DNA of 43,095 bases from a virus: UHGV virus genome UHGV-1678524; one strand, written 5' to 3'. This document shows positions 2,222-32,854 of the stretch, in pieces. Position numbers and translations under genes: made by a program. Every line of letters starts with the position of its first letter. Position 1 is the stretch's first letter. The notes under the pieces are model-generated. The model had not been told where the DNA came from, made no database searches, and worked only from the letters and a program-made list of their open reading frames with translations.

Positions 2222-2917
2222 TCAATGTTTAACTAACATGGTTTTAATGTGTGGAAGGATTCTGTTTACCTTCTGAACATTCTTCTCTGTATCTTCTATA
2301 AAGCATACTATATTAAAGTAAGGAAGAATGCAAGACTGAATCATCCTAACTTTCAAACTTTCTGCATTTATAGAGTTAGTCCCAAAACCACGCATAAAAA
2401 GCATGTAATCATGCTCTATGTTATGCCTTAAAAACATCTCAGTAGGTATTCTCTGGGATTCACCTCTCGCTGTCAAGAGTCCAATGGCAGCGTGATTAGC
2501 AATTGCATCAATAATACTAAAAACATACGTTGGTTTTGCTCTTACAGAGTCAAGAAGATTAGTGTACTGTGAGAATGACCCGTCAGTCAATTCCGTTGAG
2601 CAATCTTCGTGATTAAAATTTGTAAGAACACCATCAATATCTGCTAAGATGAGGTTACCTTTTTCTACTAGGTCTTTATTGACTATGACTAAACTGTCAC
2701 GTCTTACACCTATAGATTGTCCAGTCTCTTTGTCCACAACGTTCACAATCGGTTCTGGTGTGTGGAACTCTTCAAGTGAACATACAACTTCTCTTGCAGT
2801 GTCTTCAAAATCCCTGCACTGTTCTGGAGTCCATATACAGGAATCAAGACCTAACTCATGAGGATGCAAGTCGTAAGCATGACACAGTACTTCATCAGAC
2901 TTTCTTAATTTTTTCAT
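2222..2917 (-). CDS. Putative HAD-superfamily hydrolase domain protein (possible nucleotidase/phosphatase)
   Basis: LILADIDGVLTNF resembles HAD motif I (DxDGT/V). Confidence 0.3.
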   Translation of the reverse strand: MKKLRKSDEVLCHAYDLHPHELGLDSCIWTPEQCRDFEDTAREVVCSLEEFHTPEPIVNVVDKETGQSIGVRRDSLVIVNKDLVEKGNLILADIDGVLTNFNHEDCSTELTDGSFSQYTNLLDSVRAKPTYVFSIIDAIANHAAIGLLTARGESQRIPTEMFLRHNIEHDYMLFMRGFGTNSINAESLKVRMIQSCILPYFNIVCFIEDTEKNVQKVNRILPHIKTMLVKH

Positions 2918-3443
2918 GATTTACCTTAGAAATGTTTGTTGCAAATTCACATTGAGCAATGACTTTCATATTGTTATAGACATCTTGAGAGTATTTCTTA
3001 GCTTTAGGAATTTTGTACGAATACCCAGCATTATATGATGCTAAAACTTTTTGTAAAGTCTTCTTTGACTTTGGCTGACCATGTACCTTCGTCCAAAATT
3101 CAAGCTCTTTGTGTGTTTCCTTTGCAGCATAGTCAAAATCTTTTAAGAGTTTCTTTTTAGCCACATTAGGACTGATTTTGTTACGCTTTACAACAGTCTT
3201 CAAGTGATTCTGGAAGATACCATAATCATGTGTCTTTTTATTCTCTACATTCAGACCTAACTCTGACTCTTGTAAGGCTATAGCAGCTAGAGTGATACCC
3301 CAACCTTTACCCATATTATTCTCACCATACTGGTAAGCTTTTAACATGTTTACTTTTTGGCTAATTGATAGCTCTGGGCAGTCAACTGCATAAGATAAGT
3401 GTGCTGTAAACATTAAGCACAAACCTAGAATCAACTTCTTCAT
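2895..3443 (-). CDS. Lytic transglycosylase (SLT domain) with N-terminal signal peptide; candidate secreted endolysin or murein hydrolase
   Basis: MKKLILGLCLMFTAHLSYA signal peptide; SLT-like motifs ALQESELG, DYGIFQ, SYNAGYS. Confidence 0.55.
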   Translation of the reverse strand: MKKLILGLCLMFTAHLSYAVDCPELSISQKVNMLKAYQYGENNMGKGWGITLAAIALQESELGLNVENKKTHDYGIFQNHLKTVVKRNKISPNVAKKKLLKDFDYAAKETHKELEFWTKVHGQPKSKKTLQKVLASYNAGYSYKIPKAKKYSQDVYNNMKVIAQCEFATNISKVNHEKIKKV

Positions 3444-14646: not shown

Positions 14647-14962
14647 CTTGTTGTTCAAGTAAGTTCGCTAAGCTTACCCCGCTTTATTCAAGCTGCTTAC
14701 TGTCGCCAGTAAGTCCAGACTATATCTTCTACTTATTTCTAAGTAGCGTACCATTTCGAGTCGCTTGACCCTACACCGCTACATTCATCACGGTTAGTCG
14801 TTCGGCATTTAGATGTACTCAAACTTATATTCGAAGTTGTTTGGCATGTAAGACTCCTATGTTGTATAGTTTCTTACATCATACATCATTTAGCACAGGA
14901 TTGTCTACATCTGTAGAGTTTCCCTGTTTAGGCACGTTTTAGATGAGCTATAGAGCTTGTTA
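14647..14962 (-). ncRNA. Group I self-splicing intron in nrdD, ORF-less (about 316 nt)
   Basis: Interrupts a conserved gene; minus strand contains AAGAUAUAGUC (S element, plus 14718-14728) and CGACUAACCG (R-like, plus 14791-14800); exon 1 ends in U, GCUCAU guide candidate in the intron, intron ends in G; in-frame join ...VISPMG|CRAFLSPY... Confidence 0.65.
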
Positions 14963-16159
14963 ACCCATCGGTGAAATAACCTTGCCAGAACGCTCAAAAG
15001 CCTCTGCTACAGCACCATGACCAGATACACTTAAGAAATCTGGATACATCGCTTTAGAGCAACACTCAATGGCTTTACTATACAGGTGTCCTTGACAGAT
15101 ATTCTCATCGTGTCTCTTCTGGTCATAAATATAAACCAGTTTAGGGAATACAACAGGCTTCTTGCTCTTACCTTGTCCATTCATACGAACATCTAGGAGA
15201 GTACTTGCAATCATATATTGCAGTCGGTTATCTTCATTGGACATATCTGAATCAAGTAACCCGAATGTCAAAGTTGTAAATGCAAAATCCCCACGACTAC
15301 AAGGTACAGTGTTTAGTTTCATTTCAAGTGACTGGAAACCTTGAGTCAGTTCAATCTGTAGCTGCTCCATGACATAATTGTGGTAATGTTCTTTAGGAAT
15401 ACCATAAGATGCTGCTTTCTCAGCATGATAGCGTAGAGACTTCTTAGCATACGGCACAAGTACCTTATCAATCTCTGCTAAAGTAAAACCGCCAAATTGC
15501 TGTGCAGTTGCTGAAAGAACTACGTCACCAATAACCTGTAAGGCCGACAGCACAGACTTTGGTTCACAATATTCGATGCCAGACATTTCAAAGCCACCTT
15601 TCAGGACTTTACCAATGTCAAACAGGCAACAGTTGATACCACCAAAAATTAGGTCTCTTAAATCATGGATATAGATAAATCCTTTTTCAATGGCTTCAAG
15701 TTCCTCTGGTGTTAAATGGTACTGTTTAAAGATTTCTTTAGTCAGGTAACCACGAATAATTGAACCTTTTGTAGAAATTAAACTGCTGTCAAAGTTAGCA
15801 TTTTCACGGTCACCTAAGAAGAGTGTGTCTCTAGTCTTTTGGTAAAGCTCATCCCAATTTTGAGCAACTTCTTTACGGTAATTTCTATATGTTGAATAAG
15901 ACTCATAAATCTCGTGATTGACTTCTGCCAAAGCACCCTCAACAATACTGTGAATATCATTTACAGAAATCAGCAAATTATTCTGCTTAGTGGACTTTAC
16001 CAGAATCCTCATAAATGCTGACTCAAGAGCTTGGGTAACATCTGGTGGGAGTTCTTTATATCCAACCCTGTTAGCTGACTTAGTTACTGCTGCTAAAACT
16101 TTTTTGATATCAGGTTCTTCAAGTGAGCCATTCTTTTTAATAATCTGTACTTTGTTCAT
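14963..16159 (-). CDS. nrdD: Anaerobic ribonucleoside-triphosphate reductase, exon 1 (N-terminal ATP-cone and catalytic part)
   Basis: N-terminus MNKVQIIKKNGSLEEPDIKKV is ATP-cone-like; ORF runs into the intron and stops at 14960-14962. Confidence 0.7.
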
Positions 16160-29095: not shown

Positions 29096-29352
29096 GTAAG
29101 CCTCTTTTAAGTAACTATTAAGTTTTAATCTTTTATCTTAACGTATTCTATACGTTATACTTTAAAGCTTTTTAAAAGCTATTAAATAATCTTTTAAGAG
29201 TTTTAAAGTATCTGTATAGTTAAACTGTTAAGTAACCTTTTAAGTAAAAACCCACTTCGCAAAGATTAACACCTTGTCAAGTACATTGTCAACTTGCTTT
29301 TTATAATTTTTTGCAGTAATGTATGAGGTTAATGATTTTAGAGGGAGTAAAA
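29096..29352. promoter_or_regulatory. AT-rich divergent intergenic region (probable bidirectional promoter region)
   Basis: 257-nt AT-rich spacer between divergently oriented blocks; minus strand has tandem TTGACA hexamers (GTTGACAATGTACTTGACAAGG); RBS GAGGGAG precedes the polymerase ATG at 29353. Confidence 0.35.
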
Positions 29353-31495
29353 ATGGAAAACGTAGATTTTAAAAACTTACATTTGGTTGGTGATACAGAA
29401 ACTGATGGTTTACTCCTTGAGTTCACTAAAGTGCACGTAATGGCTTTCGCAGACTATAAATCTGACGATGAAGAGCCACCTGTATGGGTCTTTACAGATG
29501 AACCTATCCTCGGTCACAAGTATACCAAGTACATTAAGGGTGGCTTACGTGAAGGTGTTGAATTTGCGTTAAAGGCAAAACGTCTTTGCATCCATAACGG
29601 TCTCGGTTATGACTGGTGGGTTTTTAATCACATTGCACCTGATTTATGGAACTTTGATAATCCAAAGTGTAAGCCGTGGAGTAATTTCTTTCAGGATTCT
29701 CTTATCCAGTCTCGTGTTCAGTGGATGGATAGACCAACTCCAAAGGGTTATAAAGGTGCTCATGGCTTGGCTGCATGGGGTGCTCGTGTTGGTGTTCGTA
29801 AGCCAGAGATTGAGCATTGGGGTGTGTGGAATGCAGAAATCTTCACTCGTGTTGTAGAAGATATTCGTATTAACGCCAAAACTAAACGGGCACTTGATAA
29901 CGAGTATCTCAAGCTTAAGAAGTGTGGTATAGACACTTATGAAACCTACATGCGAGCTAAAGAAACATCTTTCTGGATGAGTCAACAGGCTATCAATGGT
30001 TGGAAAGCTGATAAAGAACTTATGGAGTTCCATGTAAAGGAACTTGACAAGTTGACTAATGAGCTTGCTTCAGAGGTTGAACCACATCTACCTCCAACTA
30101 TTAAGACCAAAGGTAAAGTCACTGGAGAAGAGTTTGCAAAAGCTTGGAATGAGTATGTTGAAACATTCGGTCATGCAGATGGACTGAAGAGAATTACCAA
30201 GTACCCTAAGACAAAGTATCGTCAACAGGTGCGTAACGGTGAGATGCAGACATACGAAATCAAGCCATTTGGTAAGCCAACTACAAAGATTTTTAACATT
30301 GAAAAGAGAAATTGCTATACACCAACCAACTCTGTAACTGGTGAAGAGTACAAGGAAGGTTTTGTAGCAATGAAGGATGCTCGTGCAATTTGCAACGAGT
30401 TGAATGCAAAGATTGGTAAGAAATGCAAAGACTGGAAGCCAGTAAAAACAGTTAAGACTGTGAAGTACTATAACAGCCATGTTGTTAACCACTTTGAGCT
30501 TGAGTCAAGTCGCTACACAGGTTTGATTGATGCACCATATACACCAATTGAGTTCGAAGTTTCTCGTATGACTCAGGTAGCAGTTGTTAAAGACTACTTG
30601 AAATCAGTTGGTTGGATTCCAGATGACTGGAACTACAAGAAAGACTCAGATGGTCGTCCTGTTAAGGTTTGTCGTTTCAAAGACAACAAAAAGATGATTA
30701 CCAAGCATCCTAAGTGGCAGGAGATGGTTGAACGGTGTGGTTTGAGTTATGTTGAACATGAAGGTGTCCAGTACATTGAGCATAACTGGTCTGTGAAGAA
30801 GTACACAGATTTGCTTGAGCCTTGCTTAATCCGTACTTCACCAAAACTTACTGAATCATCTTATGATACGATTGAAGGTGAGCTTGGACAGAAGATTGCT
30901 AAGTACTATACTTTGATGCACCGACGTAGAACTATTGAGAACTCAAAAGATGATGAAAAAGGTTGGTTGAACCAGATTCGTCCTGATGGTCGCCTTAGTG
31001 CTGGTGCAATGGTGTTTGGTACTTCAACTGGACGTATGACACAATATGGTATTGTAAACGTACCGTCTGGTGCTGCTGTCTATGGAGCACCTATGAGGGA
31101 AGTTTGGACTTGTGAAGAAGGTACTAATATTGTTTCAGCCGACATGAATAGCGCCCAACTTGTGCTACTGTGTAACTTTATGGGTGATAAAGATTTCACT
31201 AAAGCAGTGACGGAGGGTAAAGAAGAGGTTGAGTTTGTCAAACAAGAGGATGGTAGATACTATTGCAAACATTTTGACCAGTATCTAAACCCAGCTATTG
31301 ACAAGTATTTACATTATGATTCTGAAAATGACTTATACGTGGTGTACTCAGGGACTGATGCACATACTTTGAATAGTATCTACTTCAGTCTTAATAAAGA
31401 GGAAGACATCTTGACATGTCGAGCTACTCAGGATACAAACCTTCTTCAAGAAATTAGTAAAGGTCGTAAGAAAGCCAAAAATGGCATCTATGCGT
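29353..31495 (+). CDS. DNA polymerase, family A (T7-like), exon 1: 3'-5' exonuclease domain and polymerase domain through the first half of motif B
   Basis: Start at MENVDFK (RBS GAGGGAG upstream). Exo I motif LVGDTETDG; motif A-like SADMNSAQLVLL; ends inside motif B (RKKAKNGIYA). Confidence 0.75.
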
Positions 31496-32297
31496 CAGTG
31501 GCGCATGTAAAACGTTGTGAATTGCTGGAAGCCTAAGTCTGTAAAGATATGGTAATCAGCAGCGAAGTCTCTGTTAGGACTCCTAAAACAAAGGAGAGAG
31601 ACAATGGCAGGTTACGAAGAGAGATTATGCACTGAGTGTGGTACGGAGTTTAAACCATATCAATACAATCAGAAACGGTGCAGAAGTTGTGTATTAAAGT
31701 TTGACAGAAGGGCAGAACACAGGGTTCTTACTAAGAAATGTCCTAGTTGTGAGAAGGTGTTCATGCCGAGAACAGCAAGGCAAGTTTATTGTTCGTCACA
31801 TTGCGGTGAGAAAGGTAGAGTTAAGAATTACTCCCTAAGAACATATGGATTGGAAAGAGAAGAGGTTGAGGCTCTACTCCGTGACTGTGATTACAAATGT
31901 CAAATTTGTGGCGGTGAAGGTTTTATCATGAATGGTTCACGACACAAGGCTAAACTTGTTGTTGACCATGACCATAAAACCGGAAAGGTAAGAGGTATGT
32001 TATGCCACAATTGCAACAGAGCTTTGGGGTTGCTTGCAGATAGTGTTGATAACATGCAAAGAGCAATTGACTATCTAAGTAAATGATATAACTATAGAGA
32101 TTCCTAACAGAGAAACGTTCAGAGACTATCGAAAAGCATACTTAACGTATGAACTGAGTAGAGTAGGGTGGTAAGCTAATGACCATCCCCAAGTGCAACG
32201 GTAGCATCACTGCTACGTGATATAGTCCGACACTCCGTAGAAATGCGGAGAAGTTCATAAGAGAACTGGTACACCTTGCGAGTGTATTGACCAGATG
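31496..32297 (+). mobile_element. Group I intron in the DNA polymerase gene, carrying an HNH endonuclease ORF
   Basis: GUUCAGAGACUA (R, 32117-32128) and GAUAUAGUCC (S, 32219-32228); exon ends in U, intron guide GCGCAU (31501-31506) pairs with exon end AUGCGU; intron ends in G at 32297; in-frame join KNGIYA|LLFGAGDEK restores motif B (cf. T7 AKTFIYGFLYGAGDEK). Confidence 0.7.
31604..32086 (+). CDS. HNH (His-Me finger) homing endonuclease encoded within the polymerase intron
   Basis: 160 aa; several CxxC pairs; C-terminal VVDHDHKTGKVRGMLCHNCNRALG is a classic HNH motif. Confidence 0.75.
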   Translation: MAGYEERLCTECGTEFKPYQYNQKRCRSCVLKFDRRAEHRVLTKKCPSCEKVFMPRTARQVYCSSHCGEKGRVKNYSLRTYGLEREEVEALLRDCDYKCQICGGEGFIMNGSRHKAKLVVDHDHKTGKVRGMLCHNCNRALGLLADSVDNMQRAIDYLSK

Positions 32298-32854
32298 TAT
32301 TGTTCGGGGCTGGCGATGAGAAATTTGCTAAGACGATTAAAGCATCTACAACTGAGGAAGGCGCTTTAACTAAGCAAACATACTTTGTACGTCTCCCTAA
32401 AATTAAGAAGTTGATAGATAATTTAGAAGCAGACTTCAAAGCCACTAAGAAGGCTCTTGAAGAGGTATTTGGTAAGACCGCCGCAATCTCTAAAGGGGGG
32501 TTTGTAAAGGTTGCTGGAGCTTGGTTGTGGTGTAAATCTCCACATAAGTTATTGAATTATTTGCTTATGGGTTCGGAAAGTCAGGTTCAGAATGAAGCCA
32601 TCAACCTCGCTTGTAGAAGAACTTGTGAAGAGGGTCTTACAAAGTTGAATGGTCGAAAACCAGCTATTGGCGCTAGATTGCTTTTAGCATATCACGATGA
32701 GAATAGTTGGGAGTGTCCAGAAGACATGACACAGGATGTTAAAGCAGTAATTGACTGGATGTATGGTCAAGCATCAAGAAATTTAGGGCTTAAGGAGGAA
32801 ACGCTTGTAACTGGTACTGGTAAAGTTGGTAAAAATTGGCTTGAAGTACACTGA
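32298..32854 (+). CDS. DNA polymerase, family A, exon 2 (second half of motif B, motif C, C-terminus)
   Basis: LFGAGDEKFAKT completes motif B; LLAYHDENSWE is motif C-like; C-terminal VGKNWLEVH resembles Pol I-family C-termini. Confidence 0.75.

Follow-up and report, generated by a model that had tools for sequence, protein, structure and literature searches.

Group I introns of phage DNA polymerase genes have been catalogued at sites equivalent to Pol I positions 674, 676 and 881 (PMC3428280). The IA2 subgroup is characterized by P7.1 and P7.2 between P7 and the 3' strand of P3, with GUA preceding P7.2; IA2 members from T7-like phages and cyanophages also lack P2 and carry the ORF in P6a (PMC3428280). 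The introns of phages PhiI and W31 splice in vivo and in vitro, according to what PMC3428280 relates of the original work (Bonocora and Shub 2004). A separate branch of nucleases, including T4 endonuclease VII and F-CphI, was set apart from the classical HNH family by its DHHRN pattern (CX2-4C ... D-H-x-H ... R ... CX2C-N), which does not have the central Asn of H-N-H (Fang et al. 2018, PMC6083498). In that study, the nuclease motif was C-terminal in the endonuclease clade and N-terminal in the resolvase clade, and mutagenesis of F-CphI demonstrated that the D, H, R and N residues were essential (PMC6083498). The T7-like Yersinia phages Berlin and YpP-G were reported to have, in the polymerase gene, a group I intron harbouring an ORF of the endonuclease VII type; the endonucleases of phages JH2, EC6, FSL SP-010 and '2 JES-2013' were called intron-encoded DHHRN enzymes, and those of JH2 and EC6 were placed in the endonuclease clade (Fang et al. 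2018, PMC6083498). For phage Meda, an ORF-less intron was mentioned in the genome announcement (PMC6486253). The intron analyzed here was therefore already known, having been noted before in near-identical phages. The published mentions, one sentence each, do not include the insertion site, RNA structure, splice junction, co-conversion tracts or the two diverged endonuclease alleles. Our literature search retrieved only such one-line mentions and no splicing or cleavage experiments on any Felixounavirus copy; the Felix O1-like group goes unmentioned in the paper on Bastillevirinae introns.

The window (the entire stretch of 43,095 nucleotides analyzed) was a Felixounavirus genome, i.e., that of a Felix O1-like phage. 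A tRNA scan of the window returned none, and an nrdD intron was the sole match when the whole window was scanned with Rfam at gathering thresholds.

The family A DNA polymerase gene was split by an 802-nt insertion. This insertion is very probably a mobile, self-splicing IA2-like group I intron in the motif B (O-helix) region, the most strongly conserved part of the polymerase active site, with an endonuclease VII-type (DHHRN) gene in its P6a loop. The initial annotation, made from the letters of the window, had proposed a group I intron with an endonuclease ORF in polymerase motif B; the Rfam matches of ORF-less orthologues and the empty-site alleles supported this proposal, and every sequence feature it described between 31496 and 32297 was found again in place. 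The coordinates of all features are collected in Table 1.

Table 1. Features of the split polymerase locus, with their positions in the window, strand and supporting evidence.
Feature	Position	Strand	Evidence
DNA polymerase (family A) exon 1	29323/29353-31495	+	ORF list; partial Pfam DNA_pol_A match, 18.0 bits; colinearity with intron-less alleles
P1 hairpin	31489-31507	+	Rfam alignment; 8/8 pairs standard in 8 copies
Predicted group I intron, 802 nt, IA2-like	31496-32297	+	Rfam on ORF-less orthologues EC106/IME338; pair counts; empty-site boundaries
5' half of catalytic core	31513-31563	+	Rfam partial match 31523-31613; structure count
P3 5' strand	31513-31517	+	
P4	31523-31528 with 31556-31561	+	
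P5/P5a, GNRA-type L5 tetraloop	31532-31552	+	
P6 5' strand	31562-31563	+	
P6a 5' strand (UCUCUGUUAGG)	31568-31578	+	Pairs with 32103-32113; 11 bp, all standard
Shine-Dalgarno-like AAGGAG, 7 nt upstream of endonuclease ATG	31591-31596	+	Read from sequence
Putative homing endonuclease gene, 160 aa	31604-32086	+	Pfam, PHROG and PDB matches; pN/pS
P6a 3' strand	32103-32113	+	
3' half of core	32117-32228	+	Rfam alignments; structure count
P6 3' strand	32117-32118	+	
J6/7 and P7 5' strand (GUUCAGAGACUA)	32117-32128	+	Matches model consensus
P7.1	32137-32151	+	
P7.2	32166-32189	+	
P3 3' strand	32196-32200	+	
P8	32201-32216	+	
J8/7 and P7 3' strand (GAUAUAGUCC)	32219-32228	+	Matches model consensus
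P9, GAAA loop	32233-32250	+	All pairs standard, invariant
P9.1	32252-32267	+	All pairs standard, invariant
P9.2	32268-32292	+	All pairs standard, invariant
Terminal guanosine, predicted 3' splice site	G32297	+	Intron end ...CAGAUG
DNA polymerase exon 2	32298-32854	+	Pfam DNA_pol_A, 27.1 bits (profile positions 218-380); T7 gp5 alignment

The annotated ATG of the relatives corresponded to 29353 in exon 1. From there, the polymerase frame reached ...RKKAKNGIYA at 31494, and T31495, the first base of the motif B Leu codon, was still exonic and the last base of exon 1. Reading through past this point gave 13 unrelated codons and then a stop (TAA, 31534-31536) that fell within P5. Polymerase homology picked up again at 32298/32300 (LFGAGDEKFAKT), where exon 2 opened with TA, finishing the Leu codon, and continued with LFGAGDEK. 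The spliced protein scored 58.3 bits against Pfam DNA_pol_A and passed the cut-off of 34.3 bits, whereas both halves scored below it when taken separately (Table 1). Spliced motif B (RKKAKNGIYALLFGAGDEK) aligned without gaps to that of T7 gp5 (RDNAKTFIYGFLYGAGDEK), showing the same spacing, as the initial annotation had claimed. The break split the O-helix motif centrally, at a point flanked by the counterparts of T7 Y526 and Y530; the insertion point was the equivalent of T7 F528, roughly position 764 of E. coli Pol I.

The predicted ligated junction was ...ATCTATGCGT|TATTGTTCGG..., and the empty-site alleles of 3HA14 and FO1a read ...GIYALLFGAGDE..., the same as the predicted spliced product. 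The A-L-L codons were GCT-TTG-TTG in 3HA14, GCC-CTG-TTA in FO1a and GCG-T|TA-TTG in the spliced window, the two intron-less target types being GCTTTGTTGTTCGGTGCAGG (3HA14) and GCCCTGTTATTTGGAGCCGG (FO1a). Exon bases at the site were GCGT|TA in all intron-containing alleles and GCTT|TG or GCCC|TG in the empty ones. Removal of the insertion restored the empty-allele sequence to the nucleotide, and the predicted splice sites were the only ones that reproduced the intron-less alleles in both DNA and protein; likewise, the 3' end proposed earlier at G32297 was the only boundary colinear with the empty-site alleles. The junction KNGIYA-L-LFGAGDEK predicted by the initial annotation matched these intron-less relatives, and the comparison with intron-less relatives that it had suggested as a check, made here with 3HA14 and FO1a, confirmed the insertion site. 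The boundaries it had regarded as inferred were retained and are now fixed by the empty-site alleles, that is, by sequence comparison rather than by cDNA.

When compared with the Rfam group I model (RF00028; gathering score 50 bits), the ORF-less copies of EC106 and IME338 scored 62.9 and 62.2 bits, respectively (E ~1e-14), and covered the whole model (positions 1-253). Their cores were 98.0 and 99.6% identical to that of the window. The window's own copy gave no RF00028 match at the gathering score and a partial match of 24.6 bits (31523-31613) in a permissive scan, because the 524-nt ORF-bearing loop in P6a breaks the covariance model. Family membership therefore rests on the near-identical ORF-less copies; the Rfam scan proposed as a check was negative at the gathering score for the window copy and positive, over the full length, for the orthologues.

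In P1, the exon bases UAUGCGU and the intron C (31489-31496) paired with GGCGCAUG (31500-31507) over 8 bp, an extension of the pairing between AUGCGU (31490-31495) and GCGCAU (31501-31506) that had been recognized earlier. The 5' splice site was placed right after U31495, whose partner in a U.G wobble is G31501. The G at -2, needed for P1, was present in every intron-containing allele and absent from the empty ones, and the helix was invariant in 8 copies. The R and S elements of the initial annotation were recovered as GUUCAGAGACUA and GAUAUAGUCC (Table 1). Altogether, the P1-P9.2 structure contained 82 proposed pairs, and 100% of the 632 pair-cells across 8 copies were standard. The only changes in paired columns were two compensatory and two wobble substitutions, none of them disruptive: the closing pair of P6a was U-A in ORF-containing copies and C-G in 268-nt copies (compensatory), P8 had a compensatory C-G/U-A change with a U.G intermediate, and wobble changes were observed in P7.2 and P8. 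The L5 loop differed among copies (GUAA/GGAA/GAGA/UAAA). Since variation was this sparse (covariation at 2 pairs only, in copies that were 97-100% identical and from which the structure itself was drawn), most pairs say nothing either way. Covariation as independent proof was set aside given the similarity of the copies, and the Rfam model was relied on instead. The assignment as IA2-like was consistent with P7.1 and P7.2 being drawable, GUA directly before P7.2, the lack of P2 and the ORF in L6a, with the qualification that the gap between P7.1 and P7.2 was 14 nt and not GUA alone.

The 160-aa ORF that had been placed between the polymerase halves was present, lying inside the 524-nt loop between the P6a strands. 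Its product matched Pfam Endonuclease_7 (PF02945) with 71.3 bits (E 6e-20; cut-off 23.6) and PHROG 307, 'endonuclease VII' (E 3e-41); the PDB matches were Hpy99I (E 1e-5) and T4 endo VII (E 5e-3). Two CxxC...CxxC zinc-ribbon-like motifs were observed at the N-terminus. The nuclease motif (residues 98-138 of 160) consisted of C98xxC101, D120 H121 D122 H123, R130 and C134xxC137 N138, showing that all DHHRN catalytic residues and zinc ligands were present when aligned to T4 endo VII and Hpy99I; its C-terminal position fits the endonuclease clade. No HNH-family Pfam model matched the ORF at E<=0.01, the matches being Endonuclease_7 and weak zinc ribbons, and one PHROG labelled 'HNH endonuclease' (E 9e-14) was weak next to the endonuclease VII PHROGs (3e-41). 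The Endonuclease_7 match and the DHHRN residues therefore place the protein within the His-Me-finger superfamily, in the branch of T4 endonuclease VII and F-CphI. The label 'HNH endonuclease' of the initial annotation was correct at the level of this superfamily; the family had to be changed to endonuclease VII/DHHRN. The pN/pS was 0.16 against the EC6/Tribble allele (a deeply diverged pair), indicating purifying selection on the ORF. A promoter and terminator scan of 31300-32500 gave no sites of either kind, including no sigma-70-like promoter for the endonuclease gene, and thus nothing was learned on the expression of this gene.

The insertion was found at the identical site in ~97 of ~300 related polymerase genes. 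The junction query was spanned by ~260 records, many in one uninterrupted piece, and in 10 of 10 intron-containing relatives examined the intron was located between the same two T residues. The ribozyme core was 97-99.6% identical across phages whose exons were only 70-80% identical. IME338 was FO1a-like apart from a donor-type patch of ~55 bp around the intron, BPS17L1 had a donor-type patch of ~25 bp, and EC106 differed from 3HA14 near the site at -2 and +2 only (patch ~4 bp). The contrast between core and exon identity and the donor-type co-conversion patches are signatures of homing. The endonuclease gene was intact in the window, put out of frame in VpaE1 by the loss of 22 nt and missing from the ORF-less introns of EC106 (311 nt) and IME338 (268 nt).

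Two endonuclease alleles were recognized, with 73% DNA identity and saturated synonymous sites; they had diverged like the host polymerase genes, and the ribozymes housing them were 96-100% identical. Around the insertion site, the exon variant differed according to the allele. These patterns could reflect allele-specific retargeting of the DHHRN endonuclease; alternatively, its gene may have been swapped, or may have invaded repeatedly, within one intron. The site differed from the catalogued sites at 674, 676 and 881 and was 11 nt away from a related T7-like site, which could make motif B a small 'hot spot'. That ribozyme and endonuclease gene evolve as separate modules, with motif B DNA as a 'hot spot' for target shifts, is a tentative idea which we consider possible but rather doubtful.

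In the proposed mechanism, the polymerase gene would be transcribed as a single pre-mRNA, in which the intron would fold into P1-P9.2. Exogenous guanosine would attack after U31495, whose U.G wobble anchors it in P1, and the freed exon 1 would then attack after the terminal G32297. We infer that this splicing is catalytic; the ligated message (...KNGIYA-L-LFGAGDEK...) would encode a polymerase of 899/909 aa. The 160-aa endonuclease would be translated from its own ribosome-binding site within the intron. In a mixed infection, the endonuclease, whose activity and cut site are predicted, would cleave a polymerase allele lacking the intron close to where the insertion lies, and repair off the intron-containing genome would copy the intron and short flanking exon stretches into the empty allele. 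After fixation of the intron, the endonuclease gene would be free to decay or be deleted, but the ribozyme would be retained, as no polymerase could be made without splicing.

Homing endonuclease genes are known to split phage genes, and most GenBank records of this locus give two 'DNA polymerase' CDSs and an 'endonuclease VII', which together with the in-frame stop 13 codons into the insertion would agree with an endonuclease cassette between two separately translated polymerase halves and with no RNA splicing at all. This explanation is extremely improbable: a complete group I ribozyme was kept even in copies without the ORF, the changes in its helices were compensatory, the break fell in the middle of the O-helix motif, and removal of the insertion gave exactly the empty-allele sequence. 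Moreover, no in-frame ATG or Shine-Dalgarno sequence was found just upstream of exon 2, and the only start available was a TTG, one codon into exon 2. Conserved sites of replication genes are likewise targeted by inteins and group II introns; for this insertion, both were refuted already by the sequence. The polymerase frame stopped after 13 codons, and the endonuclease ORF had its own start and Shine-Dalgarno sequence; neither an intein nor a reverse-transcriptase domain was among the Pfam matches of the ORF, and Rfam placed the RNA in group I.

Splicing without present mobility was considered separately, with an endonuclease that is inactive, decaying or recruited elsewhere (e.g., for excluding competing phage genomes or for general recombination). 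The ORF is often lost or broken in relatives, as in the frameshifted VpaE1 and the 311-nt and 268-nt forms, and endonuclease VII-type domains also act as Holliday-junction resolvases and restriction enzymes. However, we regard this as very unlikely for the window, in which the ORF was intact with a complete set of catalytic residues and zinc ligands and was conserved, as judged by its pN/pS, across a deeply diverged allele pair; its nuclease motif was C-terminal as in the endonuclease clade, not as in the resolvase clade (PMC6083498), and the co-conversion patches show that transfers into different polymerase backgrounds took place. A mobile self-splicing group I intron with a homing endonuclease thus remains the preferred reading.

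In genome annotation, the polymerase should be given as one spliced CDS, both for this phage and for ~100 relatives. Most public records instead show two 'DNA polymerase' fragments and an 'endonuclease VII', and in the EC6 record the endonuclease is mislabelled as polymerase. In the record of Meda (MH586731), the polymerase is a joined CDS with a length that fits the removal of exactly 268 nt. The related phages represent the homing cycle in successive natural stages (empty site, intact endonuclease gene, broken gene, deleted gene) in a group widely used in Salmonella and E. coli biocontrol. The endonuclease is a candidate intron-encoded member of the endonuclease VII-type homing family, whose sole studied representative is the free-standing F-CphI. 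The current understanding of mobile introns is unchanged by this finding.

The introns of JH2, EC6, FSL SP-010, '2 JES-2013' and Meda were copies of this element inserted at the identical nucleotide, with no essential difference. JH2 was 97.3% identical to the window over the whole polymerase locus, and the 268-nt intron of Meda was 99.3% identical to the IME338 form. The T7-like Yersinia type was examined in Yersinia phage AKS2022HT54F, which likewise had an intron in motif B of a family A polymerase and an ORF that preceded P7 and apparently lay within the P6 region. The endonucleases of T7-like Yersinia phages were 44-51% identical to that of the window, with the C-terminal DHHRN motif common to both, and the 15-mer AGUUCAUAAGAGAAC followed P9 in the window as well as in AKS2022HT54F. 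However, the AKS2022HT54F site was located 11 nt upstream (AAG ACG TT|T ATC TAC, inside T7 F524), whereas that of the window was inside the F528 equivalent; the AKS2022HT54F endonuclease lacked the first zinc-ribbon-like motif, and its ribozyme was otherwise divergent, with 27 bits against Rfam when the ORF was in place.

Goodrich-Blair and Shub are said to have noted in 1994 that the introns of HMU phages were alike and their ORFs very divergent. The intron group of the window resembled them in this respect, having similar ribozymes and strongly diverged ORFs. Comparable to the IA2-like intron of the window, the introns of SPO1, SP82 and Bastille (I-HmuI, I-HmuII and I-BasI) and of Pf-WMP3 (I-PfoP3I) are IA2 introns at conserved sites of family A polymerase genes (PMC3428280). 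Their endonucleases are intron-encoded His-Me-finger enzymes like that of the window, but they come from another family, being HNH enzymes that nick DNA, and their site (Pol I 674, or 676 in phiL7) is ~90 codons upstream of that in the window (PMC3428280). As far as the account in PMC3428280 describes them, the PhiI and W31 introns (I-TslI; Bonocora and Shub 2004) are similar to that of the window in interrupting a family A polymerase gene of enterobacterial phages, lacking P2 and having the ORF in P6a; they belong to subgroup IA2, which the IA2-like intron of the window resembles. By the same account (PMC3428280), they differ in their site, E. coli Pol I 881 instead of motif B, and in their classical HNH endonuclease, that of the window being endonuclease VII/DHHRN.

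F-CphI of cyanophage S-PM2, the DHHRN prototype, was 33% identical to the window endonuclease over 96% (E 3e-11), with the same catalytic motif and domain order, the endonuclease VII motif being C-terminal. All residues essential in F-CphI were present in the window endonuclease. F-CphI is a free-standing enzyme encoded beside the psbA intron, and its target is psbA ('collaborative homing'); unlike F-CphI, the endonuclease of the window is intron-encoded and presumably targets the polymerase gene.

The DNA polymerase gene carries a predicted group I intron with an endonuclease gene in motif B, as the initial annotation had proposed. The finding is real and its interpretation correct, with splicing and endonuclease activity as predictions from comparative sequence, and all features described were found in the sequence. 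The polymerase region (29323-32854) matched 263 phage records, nearly all from Felixounavirus (Felix O1-like myoviruses); the best matches were Escherichia phage HK3 (97.7%), Salmonella phage Seyj1-1 (97.4%) and Escherichia phage JH2 (97.3%). The reading frame was interrupted and then resumed as claimed: the 737-codon ORF was homologous to polymerases through ...RKKAKNGIYA, followed by 13 unrelated codons and a stop, and homology restarted at LFGAGDEKFAKT. The two flanking ORFs scored 18.0 and 27.1 bits with Pfam DNA_pol_A, both under the cut-off of 34.3, whereas the spliced protein reached 58.3 bits.

Coordinates of the two introns and associated features in the window
Feature	Coordinates	Detail
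Polymerase exon 1	29323/29353-31495	
Polymerase intron	31496-32297	ends in G32297
Pairing in P1	31490-31495 with 31501-31506	AUGCGU with GCGCAU
Stop of first polymerase ORF	31534-31536	TAA
P6a stem	31568-31578 with 32103-32113	ORF in loop
AAGGAG 5' of endonuclease start	31591-31596	
Endonuclease ORF	31604-32086	160 aa
Element R	32117-32128	GUUCAGAGACUA
Element S	32219-32228	GAUAUAGUCC
Polymerase exon 2	32298-32854	homology from 32300
nrdD intron	14647-14962, minus strand	316 nt, without ORF; ends in G14647

In the Rfam alignment, P1 was 8 bp and thus longer than initially drawn, pairing UAUGCGU^C (caret, splice or insertion point) with GGCGCAUG; the U31495.G31501 wobble pair marked the 5' splice site. 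Joining T31495 to TA at 32298-32299 gave TTA (Leu) and the junction product ...KNGIYALLFGAGDEK.... The empty-site alleles of 3HA14 (GCT TTG TTG TTC GGT) and FO1a (GCC CTG TTA TTT GGA) encode A-L-L-F-G like the spliced window, and a one-base shift at either intron boundary destroyed colinearity with them. This comparison bore out the predicted boundaries at both DNA and protein level and fixed the exact insertion site. The spliced protein aligned to T7 gp5 without gaps through RDNAKTFIYGFLYGAGDEK, restoring motif B with the T7 spacing. The split codon corresponded to T7 F528, between O-helix Y526 and Y530, which we take to be about position 764 in Klenow numbering (R754, K758, F762, Y766). Exon 2 in the window had no in-frame ATG and no Shine-Dalgarno sequence, which argues against separate translation. 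The Meda GenBank CDS, which joins both exons, spans 2968 nt; subtraction of its 268-nt intron leaves 2700 nt, as expected from the proposed boundaries.

Annotation of this locus in GenBank was inconsistent (e.g., JX560968 EC6, KM657822 VpaE1, MW423797 Seyj1-1). Most records held two separate 'DNA polymerase' CDSs, the second beginning at a TTG one codon into exon 2. The EC6 record gave the name 'DNA polymerase I' to the endonuclease ORF and called each of the two exons a 'hypothetical protein', and in Seyj1-1 exon 2 lacked any annotation. Among the records opened, the exons were joined only in Meda's. The longest ORF began at ATG 29323, while the annotated start in relatives lay 10 codons 3' (MENVDFKNL..., equivalent to 29353), giving spliced lengths of 909 and 899 aa, respectively.

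The claimed R and S elements and P1 pairing were confirmed. An Rfam scan of the whole window at the gathering threshold did not report the polymerase intron, and a permissive scan gave a partial match of 24.6 bits to the P4-P6 part of RF00028 only, because the ORF in the P6a loop interrupts the covariance model. The orthologous ORF-less inserts of 311 and 268 nt, whose ribozyme cores were 98.0 and 99.6% identical to that of the window, matched RF00028 along its entire length, with 62.9 and 62.2 bits against a cut-off of 50 (E ~1e-14), and the Rfam match is independent evidence for the predicted group I identity. An explicit structure was drawn with P1, P3, P4, P5/P5a, P6/P6a, P7, P7.1, P7.2, P8, P9, P9.1 and P9.2. 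Over eight intron copies, all 632 of 632 pair-cells were standard. Paired columns held only two compensatory and two wobble substitutions, the compensatory ones being U-A/C-G closing P6a and C-G/U-A in P8, for which BPS17L1 showed a U.G intermediate. Other variable positions were all in loops or bulges (L5 tetraloop GUAA, GGAA, GAGA or UAAA). The pair count indicates consistency and not independent proof, since few positions varied and the same eight sequences had served to draw the structure.

The internal ORF matched Pfam Endonuclease_7 (71.3 bits, cut-off 23.6) and PHROGs 'endonuclease VII' (E 3e-41). Two CxxC...CxxC zinc-ribbon-like motifs preceded a C-terminal endonuclease VII motif (C98xxC101, D120-H-D-H123, R130, C134xxC137-N138). 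Among proteins of solved structure, its relatives were the Hpy99I restriction endonuclease, at E 1e-5, and T4 endonuclease VII, at E 5e-3. The protein was 33% identical to F-CphI of cyanophage S-PM2 across 96% of its length. F-CphI is the characterised prototype of the DHHRN homing endonucleases, a family set apart from classical HNH by Fang et al. (PMC6083498). The initial 'HNH' label was therefore correct for the fold superfamily and wrong for the family. On evolutionary criteria the gene counts as functional, with pS 0.82 and pN 0.13 (pN/pS 0.16) against the EC6/Tribble allele.

The predicted spliced junction served as query to collect related polymerase genes. They were uninterrupted (e.g., 3HA14, FO1a, Mordin and Erwinia phages) or carried inserts of 268 nt (IME338, BPS17 phages, Meda), 302-311 nt (EC106, GEC_vB_BS) or 780-805 nt. 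The insertion was present in about one third, invariably at the identical nucleotide. In intron-containing relatives, the flanking 300-nt exon segments were mostly 70-80% identical to the window, compared with 97-99.6% in the ribozyme core. Exon alignments were mosaics: IME338 was almost identical to intron-less FO1a in distal exon sequence but had the window-type base at all variable sites from about -32 to +22, and BPS17L1 had a shorter window-type patch. EC106 differed from intron-less 3HA14 near the junction at -2 and +2 only; all intron-containing alleles had GCGT^TA, the G at -2 being needed for P1. These patches are co-conversion tracts, as expected of double-strand-break repair in homing.

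The relatives also illustrate stages of endonuclease-gene decay. A 22-nt deletion in VpaE1 (509-969 of L004, the VpaE1 sequence) shifts the frame and divides the ORF between two frames, the 311-nt introns of EC106 and GEC_vB_BS keep only both ends of the ORF region, and in the 268-nt form P6a is 4 bp capped by UUAA or UUGA. Short sequences that resemble each other, CCTAAAAC upstream and CTAAGCAAA downstream, lay at the deletion end-points in the 311-nt introns and suggest gene loss by recombination between microhomologies. Window-type (31596-32095) and EC6/Tribble-type endonuclease genes were 73% identical in DNA and 79% in protein, with saturated synonymous sites. This divergence was similar to that of the polymerase exons, whereas the ribozyme arms flanking the ORF were 94-100% identical, identity falling where the ORF was located. 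Each allele was accompanied by slightly different exon sequence at the insertion site. Ribozyme and endonuclease gene seem, on these alignments, to have different histories; module swapping, re-invasion of ORF-less introns and ribozyme homogenisation by repeated homing are all possible. A similar pattern was reportedly described by Goodrich-Blair and Shub in 1994 for HMU-phage polymerase introns.

A second group I intron was observed in nrdD (anaerobic ribonucleotide reductase), splitting ...ISPMG^CRAFL.... It scored 53.8 bits in Rfam (14696-15070, the 5' end running past the boundary into the exon), and P1, drawn by eye, paired AUGGGU with GCUCAU. The spliced junction aligned without gaps to solved NrdD (PMGCRSFL). 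The region measured 611 nt in the window and 295 nt in intron-less FO1a and VpaE1, a difference of 316; other relatives had about 425 nt extra, annotated as HNH homing endonuclease.

The polymerase intron belongs to a class that is well understood and was already noticed in near-identical genomes. Fang et al. (2018; PMC6083498) identified the endonuclease VII-motif proteins of JH2, EC6, FSL SP-010 and 2 JES-2013 as intron-encoded, the Meda announcement noted an ORF-less intron in the polymerase gene (PMC6486253), and two introns were reported for SPJ41 on the basis of an RNA scan. No introns were found in the original description of Felix O1, in agreement with the intron-less FO1a allele. Added here are the insertion site, the explicit RNA structure, the comparative evidence for homing and the placement of the endonuclease, like F-CphI, in the DHHRN family. 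The insertion site differs from all polymerase sites catalogued in Pol I numbering, namely 674 (SPO1, SP82, Bastille, Pf-WMP3), 676 (phiL7) and 881 (PhiI, W31) (PMC3428280). With P7.1 and P7.2, no P2 and an ORF in P6a, the intron resembles the IA2 type described there for PhiI, W31 and Pf-WMP3. The T7-like Yersinia phage AKS2022HT54F likewise has a related group I intron in motif B of its T7-like polymerase (~2319-3007), inserted 11 nt upstream of the position used in Felixounavirus (AAG ACG TT^T ATC TAC GGA; KTF^IYGFLYGAG); its 144-aa endonuclease VII-type ORF is 44-51% identical to the window endonuclease, and both introns share the 15-mer AGUUCAUAAGAGAAC after P9.
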